Below are positions 1 through 22,667 of a stretch of DNA of 64,000 nt, in pieces; the stretch's first letter is position 1, and every line of letters starts with the position of its first letter. The position numbers were made by a program, and so were the translations under genes. Origin of the DNA: a virus; the IMG/VR virus record IMGVR_UViG_3300043570_002257, positions 1 through 64,000 of that record; one strand, given 5' to 3'. The notes under the pieces were generated by a model, which saw only the letters and a list, made by a program, of their open reading frames with translations, was not told the origin of the DNA and made no database searches.

Positions 1-607
1 TAATGATTTCAGCACTTGTACCACCACTTGTTGTTGCAATAGTGTTACCACCCATTACAACAAGTCTTACTTCTGTAATGATTTCATTAGATTCTGAGTT
101 TAACTCAAAACTATTGTTATCTAAATGGTGAATTTCAAATGATAATAAGTTACCATCAATGCTTAATGCTTGAACTAAAATGTTTGCTGTACCTATATTG
201 TGATTTACAATATTGATTCCTGGTAAAATATTTCTTATAATACTGTATTGTCTTACATTACTACCACCTGTAAGCTTGAACATTTTTTGAGCAAGCAATA
301 CACCTTCTAACATTCCTTCAGTGTAAGTCTTTGAATTTTCTTGTACGTAGTATGAATTATGTCCCTCACAAACTAGTGCAAAATTTAACACATAAAAGTC
401 TTGAGGTAATTTACCTTTACCTTTATGTATTTCTATAGCTTTTGAACGCGAAGGGTTTACCTTAAGACCCAGTTCATAATTAACCTTCATTGCAACTTTG
501 ATAAGTTGTTGAGGATCTATTGAACTTTCTAAGTCATAAGTTCTCATGTCTATCTTGACACTTTCAAGTAGTTCATCAAATTCTTTATATTGTACTTCAG
601 TCAACAT
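1..607 (-). CDS. Partial CDS (runs off the left edge), putative tail/neck ring structural protein
   Basis: ATG at 607-605 opens a frame reading MLTEVQYKEFDELLESVKIDMRTYDLESSIDPQQLIKVA... with no stop seen before position 1. It is absent from the ORF track because it is truncated. It follows the ring-like gene in the virion operon. Confidence 0.6.
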   Translation of the reverse strand, partial: MLTEVQYKEFDELLESVKIDMRTYDLESSIDPQQLIKVAMKVNYELGLKVNPSRSKAIEIHKGKGKLPQDFYVLNFALVCEGHNSYYVQENSKTYTEGMLEGVLLAQKMFKLTGGSNVRQYSIIRNILPGINIVNHNIGTANILVQALSIDGNLLSFEIHHLDNNSFELNSESNEIITEVRLVVMGGNTIATTSGGTSAEII

Positions 608-623
608 CGTTTTTTATATTAAA

Positions 624-1295
624 TTATCTAGCAGTGTGTTTAAGATCTTGTGCAGCATCTTGTGGAATCTGCATCATTAATCCTAAATCTCTCATAGCAA
701 GTTGTTCTATTTCAGGAAATAAGTGTTCAGGAACATTATAAGGACTATCTTGAATAAACTGACAGTCATCAGCAGGATCACAGTTATAGTTAGAAATGTC
801 ACCTTCAAACACACCTTCAATTCTTACAGCATCCCATTCTAAATTAGGAAAATACAGATGACCATCTAAATACCAATAATATTTTTTCTTATTATACTTA
901 AATGTTTTTTGTCTTTCCATTTGTTGGAAAGTTGTTGGATATGTGCTTGTAAGATCTTCTGACAAATCTAATGATGTAACAGCTCTAATTAAAGGTCCCC
1001 AATATCCATCATATAACTCAGGTAGTTTATCTTTTGTTCTTTTAAAATAACAACCTGTGTCAATACCATGACATTGAGCTTGTGCTCTGTCTACTTCAAT
1101 CAGTTCCACAAAATCTAAAGTTTGAAATACTGATTGATATTTCATAATGCGATTCAAGTTATCTTGTCTACGCATCATTAGTTTTGCATGCTTGTTAACA
1201 AGAGAGTACAAGAAACGGTCAGTTAAGAAAGCGTCTTGCTTAACTGCTTTTACTTGGTTACGCACCCTTGATAATACTTCACCTATTGTAATCAT
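624..1295 (-). CDS. Putative tail tubular/ring (head-tail connector) protein, crAss-like
   Basis: 223 aa; N-terminus MITIGEVLSRVRNQVK..DAFLTDRFLYSL and YYWYLDGHLYFPN resemble crAss-like ring proteins; position in the virion module. Confidence 0.55.
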   Translation of the reverse strand: MITIGEVLSRVRNQVKAVKQDAFLTDRFLYSLVNKHAKLMMRRQDNLNRIMKYQSVFQTLDFVELIEVDRAQAQCHGIDTGCYFKRTKDKLPELYDGYWGPLIRAVTSLDLSEDLTSTYPTTFQQMERQKTFKYNKKKYYWYLDGHLYFPNLEWDAVRIEGVFEGDISNYNCDPADDCQFIQDSPYNVPEHLFPEIEQLAMRDLGLMMQIPQDAAQDLKHTAR

Positions 1296-1298
1296 TTG

Positions 1299-1877: not shown

Positions 1878-1939
1878 ATGTTACCTACAATAAGAATTTA
1901 CTAAATTTTTGGGACATTATAAAGAACTTCTTTGATTAA

Positions 1940-3286
1940 TTAGACTGTATATGTGAATTCACTTATAAGTCCCTTGCTAGAGTCATGTATATGAATGATT
2001 GCAGAACGTGAGTTTCCAACGTATTTGTTATGATAATGGTAGTAATCTGAAGATGTCAATGCTGGAATTATTCTTGTTACAAAACCATTTTGTTCATTCT
2101 CAGTTACAAATTGAGTTGTTTTACGTCCATGATAATGACCTGTGTAAAGCATTCTATATTTAGAAAAACCCCATTCACTAGCAAATTCCACAGCATATAC
2201 TAATGGATTGTTTTTTGCTGTTACATCACCATGTTCAAAACATAACATGTTTAAACCATATGTAACAACCTTTCTCTCAGCGTAGGTTACATTAAATTCT
2301 ATGTCTTCCCAACTCTTAAATGCTTGAGATACAGCATGTAACAAATGAAATGAACTTAATCTGTCATGATTACCAGGTATAAACAATACTTCTAATTTCT
2401 CACAGAACTGTTTAGCTATACCAATTGCTTGGCATATTCCATCAAATGCTTTTATGTAAGCTTCAGTTGCCATCTCAGAATTCTCAACTGGAGTTCCTTT
2501 TGTAGTTGTACCACCAAAGGTATCCATGTTAAGCGTATCTGGGCCTATTACAAACACTATCTTCTCTAAGACATAGTTTGTATGAGCTTTCTCAATTAAG
2601 TAGCTTACAGAGGCTCTGAGGATCTCTGCCATGTCTTCATTACCTACTTTGCCAAAGTGCAAGTCTTGTAATGATAAAACCCCACATACTTTTTCTTTAG
2701 AACTAGTGTTCTGCCAAAAAGCTGCAGGGTCAAGTGGTGTTATTTGAGGTATCTGATAAGTTTCAAGTAACTCAAGAAAAGTACTTTGTATTTTTTCTTC
2801 TTGTGGTACTCTACTTACTAATGCTGATACTAACCATTTTGTACCTTTCTCTTTATTCCAATACTGAGAAAGTTTCCAAATTTTTGTGTCAATTTTTAGA
2901 AGTGAGATAATCTCTTCTGCACTACGTGGTTCTGTTGCAGAAAGACCTACAATTTTACTAGTGCCTGATTCTAAGTCTTCATGAATTTCAATTCTTTTAG
3001 AATCTTCATCTCTGTTGTGAAACCTGTCTTTGGCGTCAACACCAAGTTGTTGTTCTAGTTCAAATAATATTTCTTCATTTGAAATTGATTCAGATTTTTT
3101 TGTTAAATTTGCTTCTACCATTTGGATGATTACAGAATCTATTCTGGAACCTGCATCATTTAAAACTTTAATGACTTCTTCTTTTATCTTTTGGTAATAA
3201 GATATTGAAATACCTAGTCTTTGAGATTCAGCTTCTGCTGACTTCTTTCTTTTTAAGCTATGGTATACTGCTGCAATAATATTCAT
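1940..3286 (-). CDS. Calcineurin-like metallophosphoesterase with N-terminal HTH-like region
   Basis: Motifs DLHFG, GPD, PGNHD, EHGD, GHYH. Confidence 0.8.
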   Translation of the reverse strand: MNIIAAVYHSLKRKKSAEAESQRLGISISYYQKIKEEVIKVLNDAGSRIDSVIIQMVEANLTKKSESISNEEILFELEQQLGVDAKDRFHNRDEDSKRIEIHEDLESGTSKIVGLSATEPRSAEEIISLLKIDTKIWKLSQYWNKEKGTKWLVSALVSRVPQEEKIQSTFLELLETYQIPQITPLDPAAFWQNTSSKEKVCGVLSLQDLHFGKVGNEDMAEILRASVSYLIEKAHTNYVLEKIVFVIGPDTLNMDTFGGTTTKGTPVENSEMATEAYIKAFDGICQAIGIAKQFCEKLEVLFIPGNHDRLSSFHLLHAVSQAFKSWEDIEFNVTYAERKVVTYGLNMLCFEHGDVTAKNNPLVYAVEFASEWGFSKYRMLYTGHYHGRKTTQFVTENEQNGFVTRIIPALTSSDYYHYHNKYVGNSRSAIIHIHDSSKGLISEFTYTV

Positions 3287-3450
3287 AGGTTATTTTTATT
3301 ATGGTTAAACTTTAGCAAAAATAAGAAATTAATTAACAATTTCTTATAAATGCAATGGTTTTTAAAAAGATACCCCCAGCTCTCGCCAGGGGCACTTCTA
3401 TCAAAACAATAGGAAAACCAACAAACCTAAAGTCAGATTATTTTTGAATA

Positions 3451-5211
3451 TTAACCATTTATAAGTGCAAAACATTCTGCACTAGCAGTACAAGGACCTC
3501 CCATTACAATTGAGATAACATTAATAGGTTGATCTTGTCCAGCAACACCATATCTAAATACAGGTGCTCCACTTATACTGCATATTGCAAATTGAAGTCC
3601 TGAACCAGTATCTAGAGTAGGTAACATTGTAGTATTAATCAATACATATCCTGCAGTAATATCAGTGTAATGGAAATATAACATTTCACCACCAACCATT
3701 AACTCTTCATATGGTACAACTACAGTGTAACAAGTAGGTTCAGTTTGGTTTTCTTCACATGCTTCACCTTCTGCAAGATTTACTTCAGGAGAATTTGTTA
3801 CTGAGTCACTTAAAGCACAAAAGACATGAGTATCAAGACCACCAATACCACCTATTCCAAATTGTTGTGGAACTCCATTACAATCTGTATAGTTTACAGT
3901 TTGAATTTCAGCTGCTGTTGTTGTTGCAGTATAAGATATACATGGTGTAGGAGGAGGAGTACAAGCAAGTACTGTAACACTTGATGTTGTTTGAACCTCA
4001 CAACTTCCAGATGCACTAATTTTGTAAACTTTTATATAATATGTACCAGCAGTTACTCCTGTAAATGTGTGAGTATATGTTGAGGCTGTGCCTGTTACAA
4101 TAAAATCATGATATTGTAAAGGAACAGTAGGTGCACTTGTACTAACTAATTCTACAGTTAAGTTTGTTGCTGCTCCTATAGCAGCGTCATTAAATGTTAA
4201 TTCAACAGTTTCACAATCTACAGAATCACTATAAAATTCTGTTACAGGTACACATATTGGTGAAGTACAAGCTTCTGTTTCTATTAAAACAGGACAAACT
4301 GTTCCACCGCATGATGCTGGTGTAACCACAGTTCTAGTTCTAGTTCTTGTATCTGCTTCACAAGCTGACCATTCGCTCCATGCGGAAACTACACAATCAA
4401 CAGGAACACAACATGCTTGAGTCTCAGTTAAAGTTGGGCATACTGTACCACCACAAGATGCGGGTGTTACAACTGTCCTTGTTCTTGTTTGAAAACCACC
4501 AACACATGACGACCAAGCACTCCATCCAGATACTACACAATCAACTGGTGTACAGCATGATCTAGTTTCAATTAATGTTGGACATGCAACACCACCATTT
4601 GATGCAGGTGTAGTTACAGTTCTAGTCCTTGTTTCAATACCATCAATACATGATGACCATGATGACCACGCTGAAACTACACAATCCACAGGAACTGTAC
4701 AACTTTGTGTATCTGTTAATGTAGGGCATGCTGTTCCACCACCACTAGTTGGTGTTATAATAGTACGTGTTCTTGTTTGTATTCCATCTGTACAAGTAGA
4801 CCAACTAGACCAAGCTGAAACCACACAATCTACAGGAACTGTACATGCTTGAGTTTCTGTTAGTGTAGGACAAGCAGTACCACCATTTTGAGGTGCTTGT
4901 ATAACTGTTCTTGTTCTTGTTTGCACACCATCAACACAAGTTGACCATGCTGACCAATCAGACACAACGCAGTTAACAACTGGAAGTGTACCATCGCAAC
5001 AATCACAAATTCTTGCAGCAAGAGTTTGAATTACTTGGTTAATATTTACACCAGGTAAAATTCCTAAACAAGGAATGGCAGGTCCAGTATATCTTACGCA
5101 TGTGTCAAGAACAATCTCTTCACATGGTTCACCTATACAATCTGGTGGTGGTGGAGCTGGAACACATGGTGTTGGCTCTGTACAAGGTTGACAATATTGA
5201 TTAGGATACAT
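3451..5211 (-). CDS. Cys-rich putative virion surface protein with 5 thrombospondin type-1 (spondin-like) repeats and an FN3/Ig-like region
   Basis: Five (D/N)CVVSxWSxWSxC..(T)RTRTV..P..GG..CP.L.ET..C units; N-terminal CVRYTGPAIPCLGI motif shared with the neighbouring gene. Confidence 0.8.
   Translation of the reverse strand: MYPNQYCQPCTEPTPCVPAPPPPDCIGEPCEEIVLDTCVRYTGPAIPCLGILPGVNINQVIQTLAARICDCCDGTLPVVNCVVSDWSAWSTCVDGVQTRTRTVIQAPQNGGTACPTLTETQACTVPVDCVVSAWSSWSTCTDGIQTRTRTIITPTSGGGTACPTLTDTQSCTVPVDCVVSAWSSWSSCIDGIETRTRTVTTPASNGGVACPTLIETRSCCTPVDCVVSGWSAWSSCVGGFQTRTRTVVTPASCGGTVCPTLTETQACCVPVDCVVSAWSEWSACEADTRTRTRTVVTPASCGGTVCPVLIETEACTSPICVPVTEFYSDSVDCETVELTFNDAAIGAATNLTVELVSTSAPTVPLQYHDFIVTGTASTYTHTFTGVTAGTYYIKVYKISASGSCEVQTTSSVTVLACTPPPTPCISYTATTTAAEIQTVNYTDCNGVPQQFGIGGIGGLDTHVFCALSDSVTNSPEVNLAEGEACEENQTEPTCYTVVVPYEELMVGGEMLYFHYTDITAGYVLINTTMLPTLDTGSGLQFAICSISGAPVFRYGVAGQDQPINVISIVMGGPCTASAECFALING
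4267..4974 (-). repeat. Five tandem 144-nt (48-aa) TSP1-encoding repeats
   Basis: Direct comparison of the translated units; 4x48+44 aa = 708 nt. Confidence 0.9.
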
Positions 5212-5237
5212 TATATTTAAATTTTATTTGTTTATTA

Positions 5238-6806
5238 TTATGAACAGATTATTTCACCAGCACATGCTATAGCTCTATTAGTTGATATTGTTCCTAAGCA
5301 GTTATAAGTTTTAATCTTAGGTGTACAAGGATCATCTATACCACATTTTACATATTTTTGTGATTCATAAATGTGTTCTACTGTAGACACACCTGTTGCA
5401 AATGTTTTTGTAATAGATTCTAATACAAACATACTACAATCACCATCTACATCATAATTTAATACTGCTGTAAAAGGAGCAATTGTATTTGCTACAGTAT
5501 TACCTGTTGATATGTCTTTTAATGTTAGTATTGTTTTTCTTCTTTTTGTCAAATATGTATCACCATCACATATTGCGTTAAACTCATCATGCACAATATC
5601 TTCAACACTAATACAATAAAGCACTGCAGATAATGCAATTATACCAACTGTTGTTGTAACTGTTGAATCATCACATGAATATTGAGCAATAACTTGTATT
5701 TGATAATTTTTAGTAGGGTCTGGCACAATTGTAATTGTGTGACTATTTGTACCAAATGGTTTAGTTACATTTAATATTGGTGAACCAACAATAGATGTTC
5801 CATTCCACTCATATGCTTTTACTAGATAACTTAATGGTGCTTCTGATACAGATCCTGTATTAGGTGCAGACCATGTAATTGTTGATCCTGAAGTAGTTAA
5901 ATTAGTTATTTGAAGATTTGAAACAGGAACAGGAATACATGGTAATGTACCATTTGAACAACAATTACTAACTGCTGTTCTCATATCACAGATTGTCAAC
6001 CACATATTTACTATAGTTTCTGACAAAGTAGTTGGATTTGCAACCCAACCAGCAATTTGTGACATTGTATTTGCAGGAGTAGTTAATTGTGCAGCAGCAT
6101 CTAAGCCAGCACATTCTTTTCCTATTGCTGTTGATAAAGCTGCGTTAGTTCCTAACAATGTTGTTAATTGACAAAACTTACTTTCAAATGCTGAAAAAGC
6201 TTGTCCAATAGGAATAACTGCTCCTGGTGTTGCACTACTTGCACATTGAGATACAACAGATATTGTTGTTCCTGTACCACCACCACCTGTATTTGATTCT
6301 AATACAGTAACTCTATTTTGTAAATTTGTAATTGTTAAGTTAATACTTGTTATTTCATCTATGATTTCACATATTTTAGATGCCAAGTATGCACTATAAT
6401 CATTTGGAAGTAATGCAGTTATTTCATCTCCATCTTCTGTAAAATACAAACATGCAGGTAATGAAATTGGTAATACTGTACCACCACCTCCAGAACCCTC
6501 ATCACAACAATTATCTTCAAAATAACATTGCTTATCAATAATCAATTGCAATGCTTGAACAATTGTAGTAGGTTCAACAGCACCTGTAGGTACTAAACAT
6601 TTGAAATCTAAAGTAGTAAGATCAATAACTCCAGAAGCTATCTCACATAACTTTATTGCTAACTCATAAACAACATCTGTAATTGAGTCTCCTTTGCAAA
6701 GTTCAATGCAAGGAATATCTGGACCTTGCCAAATAACGCATGAAGATGATATTTTTGTACATCCATCTTCAGGTTTTAAATTTAAGTTGCTGTTTATAGG
6801 TTTCAT
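5238..6806 (-). CDS. Cys-rich putative virion/fiber protein with short coiled coil and FN3 domain
   Basis: SCVIWQGPDIPCIELCKGDSITDVV motif; coiled coil ITSINLTITNLQNRVTVLE; FN3 pattern PVSNLQITNLTTSGSTITWSAP..SYLVKAY..NYQIQVIA. Confidence 0.65.
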   Translation of the reverse strand: MKPINSNLNLKPEDGCTKISSSCVIWQGPDIPCIELCKGDSITDVVYELAIKLCEIASGVIDLTTLDFKCLVPTGAVEPTTIVQALQLIIDKQCYFEDNCCDEGSGGGGTVLPISLPACLYFTEDGDEITALLPNDYSAYLASKICEIIDEITSINLTITNLQNRVTVLESNTGGGGTGTTISVVSQCASSATPGAVIPIGQAFSAFESKFCQLTTLLGTNAALSTAIGKECAGLDAAAQLTTPANTMSQIAGWVANPTTLSETIVNMWLTICDMRTAVSNCCSNGTLPCIPVPVSNLQITNLTTSGSTITWSAPNTGSVSEAPLSYLVKAYEWNGTSIVGSPILNVTKPFGTNSHTITIVPDPTKNYQIQVIAQYSCDDSTVTTTVGIIALSAVLYCISVEDIVHDEFNAICDGDTYLTKRRKTILTLKDISTGNTVANTIAPFTAVLNYDVDGDCSMFVLESITKTFATGVSTVEHIYESQKYVKCGIDDPCTPKIKTYNCLGTISTNRAIACAGEIICS

Positions 6807-7030
6807 TATATTGTCTTGATTTTTTCTTCAATACTAATTTTTGAACAACTTCCACCAAATGTTAACCCACAAGTATTCAATTCAAGAGTTCTTAAATAAA
6901 GTTCTCTCATATCACTTGCATATTCAGCATTAACAGTTGTCTTACAAGATTTTAAACCATAACGCGTTTTCTTGTAGGAAACAAATACTGCATCTGCAAA
7001 TACTTCACTTATGCGTTCTAATGGATCCAT
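6806..7030 (-). CDS. Small hypothetical protein (virion operon)
   Basis: 74 aa, stop overlaps the next ATG. Confidence 0.65.
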   Translation of the reverse strand: MDPLERISEVFADAVFVSYKKTRYGLKSCKTTVNAEYASDMRELYLRTLELNTCGLTFGGSCSKISIEEKIKTI

Positions 7031-7031
7031 A

Positions 7032-7220
7032 TTATGTGTTGTTTGTTTTATTTTGATCTGTACTCAAAGAAGGTTTAACCACTTGATTCTCAGATTGTGT
7101 TTTCAGTTTAAGTTGATTCTCAAAGTTTGTAACACATGTGCCACATACTTCTCTACCATTTGATGCAATTCTTTTTTGACATCCACATGATAATTTTGAT
7201 CCACAGTTTTGACAATTCAT
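7032..7220 (-). CDS. Small Cys-rich (CxxC/CxC/CxxC) protein
   Basis: MNCQNCGSKLSCGCQKR..VCGTC; tightly packed in the operon. Confidence 0.7.
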   Translation of the reverse strand: MNCQNCGSKLSCGCQKRIASNGREVCGTCVTNFENQLKLKTQSENQVVKPSLSTDQNKTNNT

Positions 7221-7244
7221 CTTTTTAGGTTTTAATTTTTTATA

Positions 7245-7808
7245 TTAAGGGCATGTTACACAGCAACCTGTCATATATTTTTTAAGCAACTTGTCAGCAT
7301 ATGCTAACATTTCAACACCTTGCTTAGGTGCGTGACAATATTCTGTCTTAGCTTTTGCAGCATCAATGTACATTTTTATATAACGTAAGTCATGTAATTT
7401 TTGATGTTGCTGTGGTGAAGGCTCACAAGGTTCTAATTGTACTTTACAAAGTTCTTTGTAATAAGCATTCATAATTGTTGTTGTTCTTAAATGATAATAT
7501 TCAACAAACACTTTTTCGTTTGGTGAAACACTATATTTAATTGTGTATAGTCCATCAGGCAAAGAAATTAAAGTCTCTGCTAGAGGATGTTGTAAACTAA
7601 AGTCTTTTGCATTTAAATTAATTGCAAAACCAGGAGCAATCTTGGGTTCTGTAATATATAAAGGTTCTGTAAATCCAGGAAAGAATATGTCTAACCTAGG
7701 ACAGTCTACAGGTAATGTCTCAGCATAACTAGAACTATCCCATATTTTGAGAATAGTATCACAAGCTGTATCTGGGATATCTAACGCCAGAATATGTTTT
7801 ATTGCCAT
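7245..7808 (-). CDS. Hypothetical structural protein
   Basis: 187 aa; LPDGLYTIKYSVSPN motif; first gene after a putative late promoter. Confidence 0.6.
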   Translation of the reverse strand: MAIKHILALDIPDTACDTILKIWDSSSYAETLPVDCPRLDIFFPGFTEPLYITEPKIAPGFAINLNAKDFSLQHPLAETLISLPDGLYTIKYSVSPNEKVFVEYYHLRTTTIMNAYYKELCKVQLEPCEPSPQQHQKLHDLRYIKMYIDAAKAKTEYCHAPKQGVEMLAYADKLLKKYMTGCCVTCP

Positions 7809-7876
7809 GGTTTGAATTTATTATAATAGAATCTCTACACTTAGAATTTACAAAAAAAAACTAACATAAACAAAAA

Positions 7877-7909
7877 AAGGAGGGAAGAGTTGCACCCTTC
7901 TCCTCCTTC
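7877..7909 (-). terminator. Intrinsic terminator after the 384-aa gene
   Basis: Imperfect inverted repeat AAGGAGGGAAG/CTTCTCCTCCTT with an A-run on the left (U-tail on the minus strand). Confidence 0.6.
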
Positions 7910-7939
7910 TTTGCAATGTATGGAAAGCAAGATCAGTTA

Positions 7940-9094
7940 TTACAACTGAACTTGAAGTTGTACATGATTACCAGAACTTAACAACAATGTGTTAAAGTAA
8001 GTTTCAAATGCAGCAACACGAGCATCAACAATAACTTTTACCAAGTATTGATCAGCATCCATCATACCAGTAGGGTTGCTCTTACGAGGAACACTATGTA
8101 AAATGTGATAAGTGTAGTACTTAGCGTTACGAGACAACTCAGTAAGAGTAGTATCATCTAACACTTCACGTAAACGTGAATCTTGAGTCCAAGGCTCTTG
8201 TTGATATCTTTTAGCTAAGATTAACTCTCTAACTAAAGTTTCACCATAACCTTTTCCTTGGTAAGCAACAGTAACTTCTGCAACTGAGAAACAAGACTCA
8301 GAACAAGGATCACCAGTTGAATCAACTGCAGATGCATAGATATAAACTGGCTCAATTTCAAAATGATCTTTAGGATCAAAAGAACAGTTACCAAATTTAG
8401 TGTCTACATAAGCACCAGTCAACTTCAATTGTACCCATTTTTCATCTAAAGCAATAGTTGCCCAGTTTACAGGTTTTGTAGTTGTGATTACTGGAGTACC
8501 AGTTGAGTTGTCAGTGTACAATAAAGAAGCAGAAACAAAGTTACTAACAATAGCATCTTCTGCAATTGCAGTAGCCCATGCTTCGTAAACAATTGCTGAA
8601 TCAACTAAAGTTCCAGCAACATCACCTGCGCAACATCCTGTGAAAGCATCAACAGTTTTGTAAACGTTGTGAGTTAAAAAACGTAATGCAGCAGAACCTT
8701 TAACATCTACACGTAGACGGTAAGTTGTGTTACAAGTAATATCACAAGGAGCAGCAGCACCAACAGTGATTACGTGATTTACAGCGTTAGCTGGTTCAGT
8801 TACGTAGAATGCACTAACGTACTTAGGGTTGATACCTTTTGACTTTACAGTCTCTTTGTATCCACCGTGGAAAGGACCAATCTTGTCATTAGCGTGGAAG
8901 CTACCTTGAGCAAGATAAATTAATGGAGTTGCAGCATATGTAGGTGCAGCAGCGATGTCTTGGATAATGTTATCTTGTGCAGATACAACACCAATTTCAC
9001 CAGCAACCAATGCTAATGTGTTTTGCCCATCTTTAGTAGAGATACCATCTGTTCCTACTAAGACTTTTTGAAAGGCGTGTGGAAAATAAGCCAT
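7940..9094 (-). CDS. Putative auxiliary capsid/decoration protein
   Basis: 384 aa, strongly biased codon usage, downstream of the MCP as in crAss-like capsid modules. Confidence 0.55.
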   Translation of the reverse strand: MAYFPHAFQKVLVGTDGISTKDGQNTLALVAGEIGVVSAQDNIIQDIAAAPTYAATPLIYLAQGSFHANDKIGPFHGGYKETVKSKGINPKYVSAFYVTEPANAVNHVITVGAAAPCDITCNTTYRLRVDVKGSAALRFLTHNVYKTVDAFTGCCAGDVAGTLVDSAIVYEAWATAIAEDAIVSNFVSASLLYTDNSTGTPVITTTKPVNWATIALDEKWVQLKLTGAYVDTKFGNCSFDPKDHFEIEPVYIYASAVDSTGDPCSESCFSVAEVTVAYQGKGYGETLVRELILAKRYQQEPWTQDSRLREVLDDTTLTELSRNAKYYTYHILHSVPRKSNPTGMMDADQYLVKVIVDARVAAFETYFNTLLLSSGNHVQLQVQL

Positions 9095-9144
9095 AATTTT
9101 TATAATATTTAAAGGTTAAAAGAATTTATTTTTTTGTTTTTGTT

Positions 9145-9588
9145 TTATTTTAAGAATAACAATTTATACTTAATAGAGTTGATAGTACTTTTAACGTTAT
9201 CTAAATCATTAACAACTTCACTGTAAGGTGTCATTGTTTGTAATCCAGATACCATTTCTTTCATCTCTCTTAAATAAGATAATGCTTCTTCTACAGAATT
9301 CAAAATTCTTGGAGCAGAATCTTCATAATTTAGCAATTTTTCTGATGCTCCTTGAAATCCTTCAGCTATAGCGTCAGCGTGACCTGGTAAAGAATCATAT
9401 AATTCATTCAATGCTTTATGTGCAGAAAATGAACCTATACCTGTAACTTTCAAATGTAATTTGTGAAAGCTAACAGATGCATTCATTAGTTCATTAACAC
9501 ATGCTGCAGTTTGAGCTTCACATGAAGTAGCTGCAGGATATCCAGCAGTTGTTCTTTTCAAAGTTTTATATTGTCCTGCAAAGTCCAT
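9145..9588 (-). CDS. Ferritin/Dps-like four-helix bundle protein
   Basis: FHKLHLKVTG.GSFSAHKALNELYD..HADAIAEGFQG..KYKLLFLK; likely start is the ATG at 9588 (MDFAGQ), just after the upstream stop at 9593. Confidence 0.75.
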   Translation of the reverse strand: MDFAGQYKTLKRTTAGYPAATSCEAQTAACVNELMNASVSFHKLHLKVTGIGSFSAHKALNELYDSLPGHADAIAEGFQGASEKLLNYEDSAPRILNSVEEALSYLREMKEMVSGLQTMTPYSEVVNDLDNVKSTINSIKYKLLFLK

Positions 9589-9592
9589 ATTC

Positions 9593-10291
9593 TTAATTAT
9601 TAATTGTTGCTTGTTGTTTGTTTCTTGAATATTGGTTAAACAATTCAATATCTCCAGCTATAATAGAACATGTTTCATCAACAACCATTTCTATAATATC
9701 ATCTTTTAATTCACACTCAACATCAATATCTGTTGTTCCAGTTGAAGGATTTATACATCCCAAGAATGAAATATTTCTTGGTTTTCTATAATAAACTAAC
9801 TGTGGTACAGAAAGATCAAAGTCACCATTTGTGTAAATTCTAAACTTATTACCTTGAACTGTTGAAAATGTCTCACCCCATTTAGCACTTGGTGATCTAA
9901 AGTCATCTCCTAAAAGTGAATCAACATCAGCAACTTGTGCCAAGTAAACAATTAAAGGTCTTTCAGGACAACACTCTGTTATAGCATTTACAGATATTCT
10001 TTTGTAAAACATGTAGTTAGTAGGAATAACAGCTGTTTCATAATACAAAGGAAATTTTGTAGTTGTTAAATTTTGCTCTACAATAAGTACTTGCAAATCA
10101 TCAATGTTCATGATTGTTTGCTCACTACCCTCTTTTCCTTGGTTATGACCATGAACTTGCCTACGTACCCATTCAAGTTGAGCTTTATTAAAAGCCTCAA
10201 CAATCTGCCAACATTCAATGCTGTCATAGTCCTGAGAAGAAAGTTTATTCAATCTTTCTCTAACTTTAATTTGTAGTAGGTTGTTATTCAT
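9593..10291 (-). CDS. Putative head-tail ring protein, crAss-like
   Basis: LNKLSSQDY..IVEAFNKAQLEWV and LVYYRKP..CEL resemble crAss-like ring proteins. Confidence 0.55.
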   Translation of the reverse strand: MNNNLLQIKVRERLNKLSSQDYDSIECWQIVEAFNKAQLEWVRRQVHGHNQGKEGSEQTIMNIDDLQVLIVEQNLTTTKFPLYYETAVIPTNYMFYKRISVNAITECCPERPLIVYLAQVADVDSLLGDDFRSPSAKWGETFSTVQGNKFRIYTNGDFDLSVPQLVYYRKPRNISFLGCINPSTGTTDIDVECELKDDIIEMVVDETCSIIAGDIELFNQYSRNKQQATINN

Positions 10292-11536: not shown

Positions 11537-13186
11537 TTAGAATGATCCTCCAGTAATTGGATTTCTCATAACAATTTTGAGAACTTTAGTAGGGTCTTTA
11601 ACCCAGATAGAAGGCATGGTTTGAGTCATGAATACTCTGTAACCATTGAAATTACCTGAAGATGCAAAACCTTGACTTCTTCCCATGTAATCCATAGTTC
11701 CATTTTGGTAGAACCATTTCATTTCACTATCCCACTTCAATTTCAACAAGTAAATGTTGTCATTTGTGTTGTCAGTGATGTCAAATACGATGAAGTTATA
11801 AGAAGACAATGGGAAACCATCAATGATTGGGTTTTCAATGTCATTAGTATGAACGTTATCAAAAGCTGGGTTCAACACAAACTTAACGTTAGCTAAGAAA
11901 GGAATAGTGTAGCTAGTGAAAGCAAATCCAAAATTCAAATCCATTGCATTAGTACCAGAGATAGCACCTAAACCAGACTTGCTCATGTCAGCAAATAAAG
12001 AAGTACCAGATCCAGCTGTGCTGAATGCTTCTTTCTTAATTGCCTCATTCACCATCTTCATACCAGCCATACCAGTTTGAACAATGATTTGACGGTTAGG
12101 ATCAGGTCCTTTAAAATCAACTTTACCATTGTAGAAGTTGAAGATCTCAGAACGGAACAACTCTAAGTTGAATGAACCTTTGTTGTAGATACGTTTGAAA
12201 GAGTTGTCTAATTGTGACCAAAGACCAGTTGATAATCTGATATCATCAGGACCATCTTGCTTAATACGTCCACCTTGTCCCCACATTAAGTAGGTTTCAA
12301 TGTCGTTAGCAATTTTGCTTAAGTGTGCAGATTCCATTTTAGTTACAAATGAACGAGTCAATGTACCATTGTCATAAGCTTTCTTAATGTAGTCTTTACC
12401 CATTTTAGCTACCATTGCATCAATGTTAGTTAAAGAAGGATCTTTTGCAATGTTAGAATCAAATGACTTCCAGATCTCAGTTACAGGAACTGTACCATCT
12501 GCATTCATTCCACCTTTCATCATCATTTCTGCGCGAGAAGAAACTGAATAGTGTACGTGAGCTTCAGCACCACCAACATAGTTGTAGTACTCACGGAAAC
12601 CTGCGCTCAATTCTCCAATGTCAGAGAAACGCTCACCGTATTCACCACGAGCAGAACCTTTTCTGAAGAATTTAGTACCTGGCTTTAAGAATCTTTTGTC
12701 AAGAGCTTTTGTGTTATCATTGTTCACTAATTGAACAGTGTAAACAAAACCATCACCTGAAGGAAGAATATCTTCTGCAGTGATATAAAGTTCAGCACCT
12801 TTGTATTTATCATAAGTGATAATATCACCATGTCCAAATACACGCTTGTTAATTTTGATTTTGAAGGTAGTACCATCTTGTCCTAAAACAGCAACGCCTG
12901 GCTCAACATCTTCTACAACGTAAGGAAGATCCTGTACGATAGGAGTTTGCCATTTGTACTCACCACGAGGGTTGTCTACAAGAATAGTGTTTTTACCACC
13001 AAAAGATGCCATCTGATAAAGAGGCATTTCTACCTTTTGGGTCTGTGCCCATAAGTCAACTGGTCCTAAATCCATAGGATCAGTACTCTTAAGCATGTTT
13101 ACCAAATGGTAAGAATCTATGTGAGAACCAACTTTGTAGTTAGTATCACGTAGAAACAGTCCATTGTTTAATACGGGTGTACTCAT
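11537..13186 (-). CDS. Major capsid protein (crAss-like)
   Basis: 549 aa; gene order terminase-portal-scaffold-MCP; IETYLMWGQGG..STGLWSQL and IWVKDPTKVLKI resemble crAss-like MCPs; biased codon usage. Confidence 0.85.
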   Translation of the reverse strand: MSTPVLNNGLFLRDTNYKVGSHIDSYHLVNMLKSTDPMDLGPVDLWAQTQKVEMPLYQMASFGGKNTILVDNPRGEYKWQTPIVQDLPYVVEDVEPGVAVLGQDGTTFKIKINKRVFGHGDIITYDKYKGAELYITAEDILPSGDGFVYTVQLVNNDNTKALDKRFLKPGTKFFRKGSARGEYGERFSDIGELSAGFREYYNYVGGAEAHVHYSVSSRAEMMMKGGMNADGTVPVTEIWKSFDSNIAKDPSLTNIDAMVAKMGKDYIKKAYDNGTLTRSFVTKMESAHLSKIANDIETYLMWGQGGRIKQDGPDDIRLSTGLWSQLDNSFKRIYNKGSFNLELFRSEIFNFYNGKVDFKGPDPNRQIIVQTGMAGMKMVNEAIKKEAFSTAGSGTSLFADMSKSGLGAISGTNAMDLNFGFAFTSYTIPFLANVKFVLNPAFDNVHTNDIENPIIDGFPLSSYNFIVFDITDNTNDNIYLLKLKWDSEMKWFYQNGTMDYMGRSQGFASSGNFNGYRVFMTQTMPSIWVKDPTKVLKIVMRNPITGGSF

Positions 13187-14606: not shown

Positions 14607-17336
14607 TTATTTTTGGTCATATTTATTTTTATTTGTTTGTGCAACTTGTAATTCTTTTTGTGCAATTCTTTCTTTTGAAAGTATTTCTTGACGTTTCAAC
14701 TCAAGTTTTGCTTGATCAGATGTTTGTTTGTTTATCTCTCTTTCTCTAGATATAGACTGGTCTGCCTGTTTAGCATTCTTTTTATCAAGATATTCCAAGG
14801 TATCAATATAGTCATTCTGAGCATTTGCATCTCTATCTTGCATTGCAGTGTAACCTGCAGAGCGTATCTCAGCAACTCTTTCATCAGACTCTCTATCAAG
14901 TGCTTTCTGTTCAGCGTCAAATCTAAGTTTAGCTTCAAGACGTTTGCTTTCACCTTCTTGCTTCATCTTCTCAGTTTCTTGCATTGCTTGCATTTCTTGT
15001 TGTTTAGACATAGATGTTTTCTCTTCAATAGACTTCATAACATGTGTAATCTCAGCCATAGAATCAGCTTTAATAATGTTACCTAAATCATAAATAGAAG
15101 CACCTGATGTATTGTTAGAAATTGCAAGTGAACGTATTTGTTCAATTACTTGTTTCTGATTAACCTTTGTTGAGATAAAAATGTTCAAGTCTCTAGCCAA
15201 TAATTCAGTACCATTAATTTCAAAGTTAACCTTTTCATCCATAGTAGTTAAGTATTGTAATCTTAAACTAGGTTTATTAGAATGATAGTACTGTGACAAA
15301 TCTGTACGCATCTGATGCACACGTGGCATAAGATACTCTGAGTGTTGTGTGAAGTAAGGTTCTGTTTGAGAATAACTCATGTTTATTGCTTGTTCTACAC
15401 CCTGTGCAGTTTCTTGTGCATTTACAGCACCCATACGCTGAGGTGATAAACCAATTGCTTCAAAACATTGATTCTTAAAGTAATTTGATAATTGTATACG
15501 CGACATCAAACGATTAGTCTGCTCAAGATTTAATACTTGATAATGATTAAAGTTTGTTGCATTTTCAGTATTTGAAATAGAAGTATCTAAAGGCAACATC
15601 TGGAAATTCTTCATTGCCACATATGCTTTAGAGAAATTGTTTTGTCCCCAATCTTCACCCATTGAGTGACGTGGTAAAGCATTTTGATCTAACATAATAA
15701 CTGTTCCTAATTCATCTACAAGGATATCAGCTATCTGGTTATTAACCAAGTTGTAACCAACTTGATATGGTTTCATCTTATCTACAAGAGACATAGACTT
15801 TGTGTTTCTATCAGAGAACACAGCTCCTTCAACAGGAAGTTTACAACCATAAATTGTAAAGTCTCCTTTAAATTGAAAACGTATAGGTTTTACATCAAGA
15901 TACATTGGAGAAAATCCAAATATATCATGATTGCCATAGTAAGCTGGTCTATTAGGACCAATCTTGACACCACCCCAAGTTTCATTAATCCAAATCCAAT
16001 CAATGTGTTCACCATAAACTAATGTTTCTCTATTTTTGTTTTTCATGACTGTAGTGTCATAGATTGGTTTATCTGTAACTTTATAAGTTTCATCAACAAT
16101 CATGTCTATCAGTATTCCTTTTTCATCTATTCTTGACAAGTGACCAATCATACGTTGTGACTTCCAGTATACTGTAGTTGCACGTAACATACCCATATCT
16201 TTAAATTCTTGTAAGTCTTCTGACTCATTTAGAATTTGGAAAATAATATCATCCCCAGTATTCATATGCATTTCACTTGCACTTAAAAACTGACGCATTC
16301 CTAAAGAAGGACCATTTGTATTCCAGTCATGTGATTTTGTAGGATCATAGAATGAACCATCATTCTGAACACCTTGTATATTATAGCCAGCAGATTTTAC
16401 AGGATATATTGCTTCAAGACTGTGCATTTGATCTTCATCCATCATATAACCATACTTATCAATAACATCTGCAAGAGTAAGTAAGTCTATTCTGCCAACC
16501 CAGTTAGATTGTGAGATGTATCTTGCTTCTGGAGATTTATGATAAAATGTTAAAAGAGGATTCCATAATTCAACTTCATAGTCATCTTCTGTCATTTTAA
16601 AATGCCAGAATTCTCTATCTGTAATAAGCATGTCTCTGAAGGCCATATTCTCTAATTCTTTCATAGAGAATCTTTCTTCATCTACATTATGTTGGTGAGT
16701 AGCCCATTGCTCTACAAGTGATCTATAGTCCTTTTTAAAGAAACCTTCAATCTCAGGTAAAGTTTTAAGTGTCTCAGGAGACATCATCTGTTGTGCTTGA
16801 GCAGCTTGTTTTTCGTCTTCTAAATTTAAACCCATCTTTTCAATGGTCTCTTGCATTTTTTGCTCTGCTCTTGAAACAAGTACTTCCTCAACCATAGAAC
16901 GTTTAGCTTCAATCATTTCATTGTATGAAACATCATCCACTGCACGATATGTGATTTTGTCATTTCTTTTTGCAAACTCACCTGTCAAAACATTGATGAC
17001 GTTTGGTACAATAGGAAAGAACTTTAGTTCAAATGCACTCTGATCTTCTTTTGTCAGAACATCAATAAGTTCTGCAACTTCATTGTCTTCTTCAACAATG
17101 TAGTCTGTTTTGTCAATAATACCGTTTGCAAGTTTGTAGTTTTTCAACAACCTTCTTGCATTTCTGCGTATTTGCTTAAGACCTTGCATTTCAAACCAGT
17201 CAAGATTCCATGCTCCCCATGATTCATCTTTATCTTTTCTACGCAGGAATTGGATAGGCTGAGTTAGAGTACCCATTTTATTGTTCTCTACCTTAGCTCC
17301 ATTTTTAAGCTGCATTGCGTTAACTACTGTTGGCAT
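14607..17336 (-). CDS. Portal protein (crAss-like)
   Basis: 909 aa after the terminase; FFPIVPNVINVLTGEFAKR and SLVDKMKPYQVGYNLV; C-terminal coiled coil. Confidence 0.85.
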   Translation of the reverse strand: MPTVVNAMQLKNGAKVENNKMGTLTQPIQFLRRKDKDESWGAWNLDWFEMQGLKQIRRNARRLLKNYKLANGIIDKTDYIVEEDNEVAELIDVLTKEDQSAFELKFFPIVPNVINVLTGEFAKRNDKITYRAVDDVSYNEMIEAKRSMVEEVLVSRAEQKMQETIEKMGLNLEDEKQAAQAQQMMSPETLKTLPEIEGFFKKDYRSLVEQWATHQHNVDEERFSMKELENMAFRDMLITDREFWHFKMTEDDYEVELWNPLLTFYHKSPEARYISQSNWVGRIDLLTLADVIDKYGYMMDEDQMHSLEAIYPVKSAGYNIQGVQNDGSFYDPTKSHDWNTNGPSLGMRQFLSASEMHMNTGDDIIFQILNESEDLQEFKDMGMLRATTVYWKSQRMIGHLSRIDEKGILIDMIVDETYKVTDKPIYDTTVMKNKNRETLVYGEHIDWIWINETWGGVKIGPNRPAYYGNHDIFGFSPMYLDVKPIRFQFKGDFTIYGCKLPVEGAVFSDRNTKSMSLVDKMKPYQVGYNLVNNQIADILVDELGTVIMLDQNALPRHSMGEDWGQNNFSKAYVAMKNFQMLPLDTSISNTENATNFNHYQVLNLEQTNRLMSRIQLSNYFKNQCFEAIGLSPQRMGAVNAQETAQGVEQAINMSYSQTEPYFTQHSEYLMPRVHQMRTDLSQYYHSNKPSLRLQYLTTMDEKVNFEINGTELLARDLNIFISTKVNQKQVIEQIRSLAISNNTSGASIYDLGNIIKADSMAEITHVMKSIEEKTSMSKQQEMQAMQETEKMKQEGESKRLEAKLRFDAEQKALDRESDERVAEIRSAGYTAMQDRDANAQNDYIDTLEYLDKKNAKQADQSISREREINKQTSDQAKLELKRQEILSKERIAQKELQVAQTNKNKYDQK

Positions 17337-17357: not shown

Positions 17358-19556
17358 TTATCTAATGTTTTTGAAAGGATTCCTAGGCTTTCTCAACGCT
17401 GTAGATGATGAGTTCTCATTCCCCATGTGACGAAAAGGACTCACTCTTAATTTAGTATTTTTATTTGATTTATCCAAATTAGAATCATCTCTTTCAATGC
17501 GTTTTGAGTATCCTCTATTTGATTCTTGAACTTTGGCAAATGCTACTAAAGCACAGAATGCCACTAGTCTATCCACGTTAAGTCCTTCTCTATATGCTGC
17601 CATTTCCTTTAACAGCATAATATCAGGTATTCTTTCTATACCATATGTTTGTTTTACAATAGTTCCATCTGCCATTGTTTCTTGGTCCAACTCTTCTTCT
17701 AGGAATTGGATAGCATATGATATAAGATTGGTTTTAAATAGTGTTCCAACGTTTCTCCAACCATATTCTTGAAACACATTTGTGTTACTAGACAGTTCTT
17801 TAAGAAATAATATCTGGCTTTTTGGAACCAGGTACTTTTGCTTTCTTCTTGATATCATGTATTGAATAAACAAACTTATGTTATTTTCTACAATTGTCCA
17901 AGCATTGTACCATTCAATTATCATTTCAAGACGTTCATGTGTTTTGTTCAAGTCATCAAAACGTCCACACCATGCTGCAACAATCTTATCTCTTTCAATA
18001 TGTTGTTCAATTGTACCGTCAGCTTTGTGTTTTGTGACTTCCTGTGCTGTCTTGTATACAAAGATAGAACATAATGAATCAGACGTAGTAGTCTTTCCTT
18101 CAGACACAGGGTCAATGGAAGCATAGTAAGTTCCAAACTGAGGATCTTTACAGGGCTTTTCATAAATTACTACAACTCCTTCTTTATCAACTGTCTTAGG
18201 TGATATAGGAAATTCTGATATTGGAAGTTTACGTGATTCTTTTGAAACAATTTTACCATGCTCATCTCTTGATAAATCTACAAATTCTCTAAAGTATTCT
18301 TGATCTTCAATTCTTCTAATCTGTTTTGTCAAAAGATGTAAAGGAAATTTAGATACTTTTCTGTAGGCAAAAGCTTCTTCAATGTTAATTGGTTTCTGAG
18401 AAATACGTAACTGATAGTCTTCAGGTTTAAGATTCTTTTTCCATTCTAATCTTTCTTCAACAATCATTGCCAATGCTTTCTCTACCAAAGAGTTACCATA
18501 CTCATCTATGCAAGGTAGCATTGACCATTGTTCTGGAATAAATAAACCACACTTAGCAATCTCTCCTTCAGCATTAACAAGATTTGTTTCTACTGCAAGT
18601 ACATCTTTAGAGATAGGATTCATGATCATTTCTTTCAATGGTTCACATTGTTCCAAATCTCCCACTGATCCTGCAGCTACAAACATACCTGTATATGTCA
18701 TACCAGATTTCATTGCTGGTAGCAAGTACTCCACTGTCTCATTCATCTTTGGTGCAATCCCTGCCTCCTCATGATAGAAGAATGTACAAGGACCCCCTAC
18801 ACCATTTGTTGGATCTTTTTCAAGGGCAAGTCCAAATATTACAGACTTTAATCCAACATCACGTTTTTTTCCTCCTTGATTAACTTCAATTTTTTGTTCC
18901 CAGTTTAAAACTTTATCTGGATTACAAGGTCTATACCATGCAGTATGTGTATTTAAGAAGTTTCTATATTCTTCTAAAAAACGCCAAGTACCTTTTTCAT
19001 TTATGTAATCCTTTAGGGAACCAGCCATTTTGTTTATAGCACCTTCCTCAAAGTAAAATAAGTTAATCATTTTTCCTGCGTGGAAATAAGAGGATGCTAT
19101 CTGACGTTTCTTTAATATAGCAGCATGTTGAGAAGAATGCTTTGCAATTTCTTCATACAGTGCCATATGGTATTGGGCGTCCCTTACATCTGCAAAGGTA
19201 AACTTTGCCACCTCCTTATTGTAAATAGGTAAAAAATTTATCCACATGTAATAGTCTCTTGCCAAGAGCCATGTGTTTTTCTCACCTTTATAAATTACTC
19301 CTTTTCTACATTTTTCTTTTTGGTCATCCCAATATTGTATGTAGTCTTTTGTTCTTAGTGGAGCTGTACAAAATAATTTGTATTTATTAAATCTTCTAGC
19401 TTCCTGATTAAACAACAATGATGTTTCATCAAACTCGTATTTTCCTGGCTCTTTAAAAATTGACCATAAAAATTCTACATATAATTCTTTTGTTTCAAAG
19501 TCAGTATATGACCATGATTCAGTTTTAACATCATATGTTGGTACACTTAAATACAT
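17358..19556 (-). CDS. terL: Terminase large subunit
   Basis: ATPase region LKKRQIASSY, Walker B-like FFYHEEAG, nuclease motifs ASIDPV and NVDRLVA. Confidence 0.9.
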   Translation of the reverse strand: MYLSVPTYDVKTESWSYTDFETKELYVEFLWSIFKEPGKYEFDETSLLFNQEARRFNKYKLFCTAPLRTKDYIQYWDDQKEKCRKGVIYKGEKNTWLLARDYYMWINFLPIYNKEVAKFTFADVRDAQYHMALYEEIAKHSSQHAAILKKRQIASSYFHAGKMINLFYFEEGAINKMAGSLKDYINEKGTWRFLEEYRNFLNTHTAWYRPCNPDKVLNWEQKIEVNQGGKKRDVGLKSVIFGLALEKDPTNGVGGPCTFFYHEEAGIAPKMNETVEYLLPAMKSGMTYTGMFVAAGSVGDLEQCEPLKEMIMNPISKDVLAVETNLVNAEGEIAKCGLFIPEQWSMLPCIDEYGNSLVEKALAMIVEERLEWKKNLKPEDYQLRISQKPINIEEAFAYRKVSKFPLHLLTKQIRRIEDQEYFREFVDLSRDEHGKIVSKESRKLPISEFPISPKTVDKEGVVVIYEKPCKDPQFGTYYASIDPVSEGKTTTSDSLCSIFVYKTAQEVTKHKADGTIEQHIERDKIVAAWCGRFDDLNKTHERLEMIIEWYNAWTIVENNISLFIQYMISRRKQKYLVPKSQILFLKELSSNTNVFQEYGWRNVGTLFKTNLISYAIQFLEEELDQETMADGTIVKQTYGIERIPDIMLLKEMAAYREGLNVDRLVAFCALVAFAKVQESNRGYSKRIERDDSNLDKSNKNTKLRVSPFRHMGNENSSSTALRKPRNPFKNIR

Positions 19557-22419: not shown

Positions 22420-22592
22420 GGTTTTTAATATTTTAATTTTATGTACCATTCACTCAGGATTTTCACCTGAACAACCCTCTCATTATAGACTTGTGAGTCT
22501 TAACTGTTCTATTCCACCAAATAGAATGGGTATGCTTTTTTTACACTTACATCAGTGCGGTACTGGCTAGTCCTGCATGGCATTCACCGTTG

Positions 22593-22667
22593 TTGCGGGG
22601 GTGGGATTTGAACCCACGTGGTTTGGCTTATGAGACCAAGCTGGAACCAACTCCAGTCTACCCCGCG
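22593..22667 (-). tRNA. tRNA-Met (CAU) with initiator-like C1xA72 mismatch; CCA not encoded
   Basis: Minus strand CGCGGGG-TA-GACTGGAGTTGGTTCCAGC-TTGGT CTCATAA GCCAA-ACCAC-GTGGG TTCAAAT CCCAC-CCCCGCA-A. Confidence 0.9.

Follow-up and report, generated by a model that had tools for sequence, protein, structure and literature searches.

The thrombospondin type 1 repeat (TSR) has been regarded as a domain of animal origin that serves adhesion in animals and apicomplexans (PMC3417536), and the Pfam family TSP1_spondin (PF19028) was made for those TSRs in which the first cysteine lies before the WxxW motif and is paired to C4 (bioRxiv 10.1101/779553). Among phages, the virion of PhicrAss001 is stabilised by disulfides, a precedent for disulfide-stabilised crassvirus tails (PMC10172136), and in Tuc2009 the C-terminal beta-hairpin of one baseplate protein completes the beta-sheet of an Ig-like domain in another, in the pair BppU-BppA (PMC4742702). 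A full-text literature search (supplements not covered) retrieved no paper describing TSRs in a phage. Here we describe a gene within the first 64,000 nucleotides (64 kb; hereafter the window) of the IMG/VR virus record IMGVR_UViG_3300043570_002257, which is 120,226 bp long and 95% complete according to CheckV; the gene encodes P0001, a 586-residue protein in which five tandem TSRs stand between a cysteine-rich N-terminal domain and a series of distal modules. We consider that this gene probably specifies one chain of a modular virion fibre, in which a Cys-knot anchor would be followed by a TSR stalk and a distal binding tip.

Results

Thrombospondin-type repeats of P0001

P0001, which contains 46 cysteines and has a net charge of -35, carries its five 48-residue units head to tail over residues 81-320 (nucleotides [nt] 4252-4971; repeat period of 144 nt by Tandem Repeats Finder [TRF]), and the units are mutually 56-75% identical in protein and 61-72% identical in DNA. 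The protein matches TSP1_spondin with an E value of 2.1e-56 (188.4 bits, against a cut-off of 41) and Pfam TSP_1 with an E value of 9.4e-22 (77 bits), over five stretches in each case; each of the five units taken alone passes the TSP1_spondin cut-off (42.5-58.3 bits), and a six-frame search of the 120-kb record with this profile returned only these five places. Judged by profile score, the match to TSP1_spondin lies far beyond chance. All five units contain the motif C-V-V-S-x-W-S-x-W-S-x-C, a T-R-T-R-T ladder and the motif G-G-x-x-C-P-x-L-x-E-T-x-x-C; the WxxW tryptophans and the RxR ladder (the CWR layers) are thus present throughout, and the first cysteine before WxxW occupies the expected position in every unit. 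The C-S-x-T-C-G loop is missing from all five and the last usual cysteine has no counterpart, leaving a core of four cysteines; because no unit possesses the six-cysteine core with its C-x-x-C-G loop, the repeats are, on their motifs, a reduced variant of the TSP1_spondin family.

Much of this had been anticipated by a first-pass annotation of the window, made by a model from the letters, which had described five 48-residue TSP1 units with these tryptophan, arginine-ladder and GGxxCP motifs and without the CSxTCG loop, in a phage virion module. The profile match and the motif counts bear out the repeats, their motifs and the missing loop, and the location is upheld by synteny only, with the genes for terminase large subunit (TerL), portal, capsid and ring proteins. 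The same annotation had pointed to extra cysteines that come in pairs, interpreted as a newly evolved disulfide. A CC dipeptide closes units 3 and 4, and A-S-C-G-G occurs in units 4 and 5. When 123 distinct units from 103 relatives were surveyed, both extra cysteines were present in 45 and neither in 67, with the upstream cysteine only in 9 and the loop cysteine only in 2 (Fisher P value of 5e-22, with units treated as independent and kinship ignored). Eight of the nine upstream-only cases are first units, in which the CC belongs to the N-terminal domain, and the ninth is a pattern miss. The extra pair is therefore real as a sequence feature, but its novelty does not hold, since it is found in 45 of the 123 units of the family and is not new to P0001.

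PHROGs contains no family for P0001. No match was obtained in GenBank phages (50,697 records in the collection searched with P0001) when P0001 and its 522-residue upstream neighbour were compared by tblastn and the DNA from TerL to the major capsid protein (MCP) gene by blastn. A protein recovered from metagenome data, P0002, is 98% identical to P0001. Contigs from RNA libraries cover parts of the TSR gene with 0-2 differences and may represent DNA carry-over.

Phage context and N-terminal domain

The phage behind the record is a distant, uncultured crAss-like phage. The crassvirus MCP, portal, TerL and ring proteins 1 and 2 are encoded in a single same-strand block (Table 1), as in the structural module of the Crassvirales; the TSR gene is placed between the capsid genes and the ring protein 2/1 block, on the minus strand like them. 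The nearest isolate by portal sequence is Leptolyngbya phage Lbo-JY46, with 32% identity, followed by Cellulophaga and gut crAss-like phages, and every one of the 146 GenBank records that match the portal does so at less than 60% identity. The G+C content of the phage is 32-36%.

An exhaustive profile-free search located the N-terminal domain in 80 cluster representatives (E value of 1e-3 or less), in 78 of which it is N-terminal. The passengers that follow it are varied: among the 55 representatives scanned with Pfam, TSP1_spondin was found in 12, fn3 in 6, Fib_succ_major in 3, leucine-rich repeats (LRR) in 1 and DUF11 in 1, and no family in 35. This conservation in front of varied passengers fits an anchor, and it is because the domain is N-terminal in 78 of 80 clusters and its passengers vary that we propose it as the anchor of the chain. 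Its core recurs in residues 16-61 of the 522-residue upstream neighbour (hhalign probability of 92%, E value of 6e-7). In Lbo-JY46, a 156-residue homologue of the N-terminal part of this neighbour (approximately 30% identity, E value of 3e-4) is encoded directly upstream of an annotated tail fiber gene. A conserved N-terminal part joined to a variable distal part beside tail genes, as seen for P0001, is the arrangement of receptor-binding proteins (RBPs) and tail fibres, the attachment of P0001 itself being putative. The AlphaFold2 (AF2) model of the N-terminal domain has a pLDDT (predicted local distance difference test) of 80.4 and contains one helix (residues 57-71), the remainder being knot-like coil.

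Variation among relatives and in nature

A profile scan of viral contigs identified 57 TSR loci, 15 of them syntenic with the window. A comparison of repeat number across relatives, which the first-pass annotation had suggested as a check, shows variation in the array: across 12 distinct syntenic loci, the TSR gene contains between 1 and 5 copies of W-x-x-W-x-x-C. At the closest locus (L011) the flanking genes are 74-97% identical to those of the window, most of them 90-97%, and the TSR gene is 46% identical. Beyond the syntenic group, a protein of approximately 1787 residues (L014:1777-7137) carries four TSRs in its C-terminal part behind an N terminus that matches crAss_MUZ, and a protein of 2474 residues (L024:1732-9153), with an N terminus similar to that of the former, carries eleven TSRs in its C-terminal part.

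The TSR gene is found nearly unchanged in metagenomes from lake water, freshwater and estuary; 18 of the 20 metagenome rows examined, from 12 studies, hold at least half of the sampled words, and six rows may be the source. Two strains co-occur in two lake runs (X12 and X13). The minor one shows 40-41 differences from the window over nt 3416-6690 (3275 nt). The dominant one, at approximately five times the depth, agrees with the window in the flanks and over nt 4853-5233, which comprise the N-terminal domain and the first repeat, but not over nt 3445-4853, where it has other sequence. It follows from these matches that co-occurring strains differ in the part of the gene beyond the first repeat. 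Everything distal to the N-terminal domain is hypervariable.

Distal modules and proposed separate tip proteins

The TSR array is followed by a module of approximately 100 residues that is all-beta by sequence pattern, has no Pfam family and is repeated one to three times in relatives, where it is interleaved with TSRs (40 local BLAST hits); it may be Ig/fn3-like. Residues 421-492, the first tip module, are 42-50% identical to the middle of separate 255-260-residue tip open reading frames (ORFs) in five relatives (L008-L011 and L023) and are modelled as mostly beta (block-mean pLDDT of 60-86). Residues 493-586, the second tip module, are 43% identical to the C-terminal half of a separate 178-residue ORF in L010. 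A single-sequence scan of viral contigs with residues 424-586 gave one weak locus and a word-based protein search with the same residues gave nothing; the matches to the tip in the ESM Atlas, all of them unnamed viral clusters, scored 0.78-0.80, no better than chance.

In one set of N-domain homologues, 22 of 25 finish in a tail resembling C-P-x-P-T-x-L-x-A-T; in a separate count of its occurrences this motif was terminal 21 times and internal 3 times. A census of 13 of the 15 syntenic loci (L013 and L043 were left out as duplicates) revealed two arrangements. At eight loci the TSR gene closes with this tail and is followed by one to three small ORFs, which begin M-A-T-x-T-x-N-W/F-T-P, at the point where an fn3-like strand B would start; at the other five, and in the window, there is one long ORF without the tail. 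The tail-then-ORF arrangement is laid out in L010 (equivalent to L001) at 6001..9580 and was also seen in L008, L009, L011, L012, L015, L022 and L023. Readthrough or frameshifting at the split junctions was considered and rejected, because the gaps are AT-rich, contain several stops and are followed by an ATG of the downstream ORF's own. A Pfam scan of 12 such acceptor ORFs from relatives gave one weak fn3 match (E value of 0.078, starting from profile position 16 of 84). The pattern, taken with this one weak Pfam match on which the fn3 assignment at the joint also rests, suggests that the separate tip ORFs of relatives join the TSR protein through a split fn3 domain, in plug-and-socket fashion. 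P0001 ends in ...CFALING and is followed by the gene for a 448-residue protein, and so lacks the split-fn3 joint. Because residues 421-492 and 493-586 are homologous to parts of separate ORFs, the window has the fused form: its tips are covalent, and in relatives they appear to be added as chains of their own.

Distribution of the short-loop repeat

The short-loop form of P0001 is the rule in the phages sampled, where it accounts for 89 of 91 units. Units with a C-x2-3-C-G loop numbered 0 of 36 in the syntenic phage group, 0 of 41 in giant muzzle-type phage proteins (with an N terminus like that of L014) and 2 of 14 in other phage proteins; the corresponding figures were 9 of 10 for Bacteroidota, 93 of 111 for other bacteria, 31 of 41 for giant-virus-like contigs and 80 of 124 for eukaryotes, all counted by sequence pattern, so that some of the absences scored in cellular units are pattern misses. 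Outside phages, oomycete proteins, some giant-virus-like contigs and the genome of one Flavobacterium isolate also have the short-loop form. A pattern scan of bacterial genomes found TSRs at 32 loci, including type IX secretion system (T9SS)-sorted surface proteins of Schleiferiaceae, Owenweeksia and Chitinophagales; the surface proteins of Bacteroidota bear canonical TSRs, and some of the T9SS-sorted ones combine TSRs with malectin or LTD domains. In the Flavobacterium contig (L084, Flavobacterium cheongpyeongense, a freshwater isolate), frame 1-3456 encodes an LRR protein with one short-loop TSR, which is 65-71% identical to phage units and may hint at the lineage of the host, or at exchange with that lineage.

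Neighbouring genes

The features of the window that bear on this analysis are collected in Table 1. The ORF at the left edge of the window is 88% identical to its counterpart in L010, a second cut of the L001 contig, and the full-length orthologue (L001:16418-17518) matches CrAss_Ring_1 with an E value of 8.5e-9. Within the 522-residue upstream neighbour, which is 64-75% identical among close relatives, the fn3 match (E value of 3e-4) is under the cut-off. The 448-residue downstream neighbour is 82-93% identical in close relatives and forms the conserved right border of the variable cassette; the gene for this metallophosphatase-like protein is located inside the structural block, with the putative fibre genes on one side and that for ring protein 2 on the other. 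Comparison of the 448-, 192-, 384- and 522-residue neighbours with PDB sequences by phmmer gave no useful match, and no tail-hub or auxiliary-capsid identity emerged from it.

Cysteine richness is a trait common to the whole part of the structural module that surrounds the TSR gene. Two small conserved neighbours are Cys-rich: a 62-residue protein (window 7032..7220, minus strand) with C-x-x-C ... C-x-C motifs, and a 187-residue protein (window 7245..7808, minus strand) whose C terminus is G-C-C-V-T-C-P. The structural genes on the capsid side include one for a ferritin/Dps-like protein (DUF5856, phrog_858; window 9145..9648, minus strand). A tRNA gene at window 22592..22667 (minus strand) was given a two-base anticodon by ARAGORN, its identity being left unassigned; it is not a suppressor, and by eye the anticodon loop reads CTCATAA, giving CAT (Met or Ile2).

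Table 1. Features of the window discussed in the text, with positions in nucleotides
Feature	Position	Strand	Basis or remark
Orthologue of tail ring protein 1, C-terminally cut ORF	2..607	-	Via full-length L001 gene
Tail ring protein 2	624..1295	-	Pfam CrAss_Ring_2, E 1e-20
448-aa metallophosphatase-like downstream neighbour	1940..3286	-	phrog_704 'DNA repair exonuclease', E 5.5e-45
TSR gene, 586-aa modular fibre-like protein (P0001)	3451..5211	-	Open under code 11
Second tip module, C-terminal domain	3454..3735	-	Residues 493-586
First tip module, small beta domain	3736..3951	-	Residues 421-492; begins C-I-S-Y-T
Module of ~100 aa	3952..4251	-	Residues 321-420; all-beta by sequence pattern
TSR unit 5	4252..4395	-	Residues 273-320; loop Cys C301
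TSR unit 4	4396..4539	-	Residues 225-272; loop Cys C253, terminal CC (C267, C268)
TSR unit 3	4540..4683	-	Residues 177-224; terminal CC (C219, C220)
TSR unit 2	4684..4827	-	Residues 129-176; 4 Cys
TSR unit 1	4828..4971	-	Residues 81-128; 4 Cys
N-terminal Cys-rich domain, putative virion anchor	4972..5211	-	Residues 1-80; 10 Cys
522-aa upstream neighbour of TSR gene	5238..6806	-	N-domain core at residues 16-61; weak fn3 match
Crassvirus-type major capsid protein	11537..13186	-	Pfam Crass_capsid, E 3.6e-32
Portal protein	14607..17336	-	phrog_6547, E 1.8e-81
Terminase large subunit	17358..19556	-	phrog_6681, E 1.4e-63

Discussion

We suggest that P0001 is a fibre chain built of three functional parts. 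The 80-residue Cys-rich N-terminal domain would dock the chain onto the particle; the five four-Cys TSRs would stack end to end to form a thin, acidic, disulfide-stapled stiff stalk, in which units 4 and 5 would each have one extra staple to the linker before them; and the beta module, together with the two small distal beta domains, would constitute a ligand-binding tip. Repeat number would then set the reach of the fibre and the tip its specificity, and the disulfides would presumably form outside the reducing cytoplasm. Solved TSRs are elongated in shape, and it is because of this shape, the free variation in the number and position of the units, their acidity and their use after a muzzle-like N terminus that a stalk role is put forward. 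Several observations weigh against this interpretation. The virion placement of P0001 comes from gene order only, and the rod shape of the proposed stalk is taken from known TSR structures. A protein of 46 cysteines is made in a reducing cytoplasm, and neither thioredoxin nor glutaredoxin nor DsbA turned up when the phage genome was searched for them. The AF2 model of residues 493-586 is poor (10-residue block-mean pLDDT of 42-58), and a fold search with the tip model returned lectins, carbohydrate-binding modules and pilins at Z scores of 4.2 or less, none standing out. Foldseek retrieved nothing from the PDB for the model of the N-terminal domain; in a wide VIA search the best match of this model, to the stem region of an RBP from Brochothrix phage NF5 (Z score of 3.9, rmsd of 2.5 Å over 45 residues, all else scoring 2.7 or less), is a lead only. 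Finally, TSRs bind ligands in many cellular proteins.

This last point raises the question of whether the TSRs are themselves the adhesive element, acting as a multivalent lectin-like array on glycans, sulfated or otherwise, at the surface of biofilms, algae or mucus, much as the first-pass annotation had supposed in calling the protein a sulfated-glycan adhesin. The TSRs of TRAP/MIC2-type adhesins and of thrombospondin bind ligands, MIC2 is among the best matches of P0001 to solved chains, tandem repetition gives avidity, and the joining of TSRs to malectin or LTD domains in T9SS surface proteins of Bacteroidota points in the same direction. The charge of the repeats tells against it: the TSR block contains no lysine and only the arginines of the ladder, with a net charge of -6, and phage units (n = 91) have a median net charge of -2 and none reaches +2, a value attained by 41% of eukaryotic units (n = 124). 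In addition, there is free variation in how many units occur and where, relatives have spacer-like modules between them, and it is the distal parts that are exchanged between close strains. We therefore regard an adhesive array as unlikely and its sulfated-glycan version as disfavoured by the charge data; because the block is acidic and devoid of lysine and the distal modules are the swapped parts, a stalk is most likely the better fit for the TSRs. A second alternative retains the fibre and moves it to the head, as a head fibre or capsid decoration like gp21 and gp29 of PhicrAss001 or Hoc of T4. The two head fibres of PhicrAss001 dock on the capsid by short N-terminal parts and bear beta-sandwich domains distally, and the authors of that study expect that other crassviruses possess uncharacterised head-fibre analogues (PMC10172136); in the window, two adjacent genes with a common N-terminal domain lie downstream of the capsid genes. 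Even so, the TSR gene and its 522-residue neighbour are directly upstream of the Ring 2/Ring 1 block, the Lbo-JY46 homologue of the neighbour's N-terminal part adjoins a tail fiber gene, TSRs are fused to muzzle-type tail proteins in other crAss-like contigs, and, as a weaker point, likeness to gp21 or gp29 was not apparent from PHROGs, from PDB sequences outside the TSRs, from Foldseek or among the matches listed by VIA. A head location is thus doubtful, if somewhat less so than the adhesive array, and on account of the ring-gene neighbours, the Lbo-JY46 neighbour and the muzzle fusions we lean towards a tail or side fibre. We attach very little weight to the idea that P0001 is a non-structural protein, released for example at lysis onto the surfaces of the host or neighbouring cells: it is unusually Cys-rich for part of a cytoplasmically assembled particle, but its gene is enclosed by structural genes of the same strand and is syntenic at 15 viral loci, no signal peptide is obvious to the eye at the start of the protein, and its conserved N terminus and variable distal parts are those of a fibre.

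The origin of the repeats was likewise open to more than one explanation, and the first-pass annotation had described them as eukaryote-type and rare in prokaryotes. TSRs at 32 bacterial and 57 viral loci leave that description without support, and the units of P0001 are nearest to those of other phages. A recent capture straight from a eukaryote or a giant virus, which would mark an association with eukaryotes, could be argued from the many eukaryotic proteins that match the repeats at 35-50% identity and from the short-loop units of oomycete proteins and giant-virus-like contigs. For units of the syntenic group, however, the median best-hit identity is 69-74% to other phages, 56-61% to bacteria and 51% to eukaryotes. 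In a FastTree phylogeny of 255 units, of the kind that the first-pass annotation had proposed as a check against eukaryotic TSRs, the label phage or other switches 12 times, compared with 65-72 times in shuffles, although the tree is weak, with approximately 50 columns, and the shuffle range is from five of 200 shuffles; this outcome speaks against such a capture. Since units within the gene are just 61-72% identical in DNA, the array is old, and a Flavobacterium isolate genome contains a unit of the phage type. Because of the best-hit identities, the tree and the bacterial TSR loci, recent direct capture from a eukaryote seems unlikely, and in the form that implies eukaryote association we would call it highly improbable.

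More speculatively, crAss-like phages of freshwater and marine habitats may have domesticated a minimal four-Cys TSR as a strut of adjustable length that is soft in the cytoplasm and disulfide-locked only after lysis, equipped with a universal N-terminal Cys-knot plug and with fused or split-fn3 tips; we put this forward tentatively, as possible rather than probable. On such a scheme the window and its relatives would capture both states of one exchangeable-tip system, and host range in natural lake populations would vary chiefly with the number of repeats and the tip chosen. If the fibre interpretation of P0001 is correct, a distinct, reduced TSR subtype would be a common fibre building block in uncultured crAss-like phages, and the question arises of how a virion part with 46 cysteines folds. 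The TSR gene would provide a natural marker of host-range variation, lake strains differing distal to the first repeat, and discussion of the origin of TSRs would move away from an animals-only view, given the canonical TSRs of Bacteroidota surface proteins.

Comparison with known systems

The repeats of P0001 share with spondin-type TSRs (PF19028) the first cysteine before WxxW, the tryptophan and arginine ladder and the G-G-x-x-C-P loop. They differ in lacking the second cysteine, that of the C-x-x-C-G loop, and the usual last cysteine, in being acidic, in the different extra pair that some of them possess and in belonging to a phage structural protein without a signal peptide. Among PDB sequences the best solved-chain matches are the TSRs of complement C8 alpha, MIC2, C8 beta and C9, the closest being C8 alpha (E value of 2.4e-6) and Toxoplasma MIC2 (8e-5), both weak E values. 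When aligned with P0001, the C-terminal TSR of C8 alpha shows the same short form: the ladder follows W-S-x-C directly, with no C-S-x-T-C-G loop between them. The TSRs of C8 alpha, C8 beta, C9 and MIC2 are, however, single repeats in eukaryotic pore-forming or adhesin proteins, whereas those of P0001 form a tandem array.

With respect to phage systems, T4 Hoc, which displays tandem small extracellular-type domains on the phage with a proposed weak adhesion, resembles P0001 in that respect; Hoc is Ig-like and therefore of another fold, and the putative anchor and exchangeable tips of P0001 point to a fibre for a specific ligand. The fibres of PhicrAss001 (gp21 and gp29 on the head and gp22 on the tail) come from the same phage order and have the same plan of an N-terminal docking part and flexible distal beta domains, but comparisons through PHROGs, PDB sequences, Foldseek and VIA revealed no similarity of sequence or fold to P0001. 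Docking in PhicrAss001 employs segments of 26-58 residues, as against the 80-residue Cys knot of P0001, and TSRs are unmentioned in the accessible part of the report on these fibres (PMC10172136). The closest parallel to the relatives of the window is offered by BppU-BppA of Tuc2009, since at 8 of 13 loci a strand-like tail is followed by an ORF that begins at an fn3-like strand B; the relatives would putatively donate a single strand rather than a hairpin, whereas P0001 is tail-less and carries its tips covalently.

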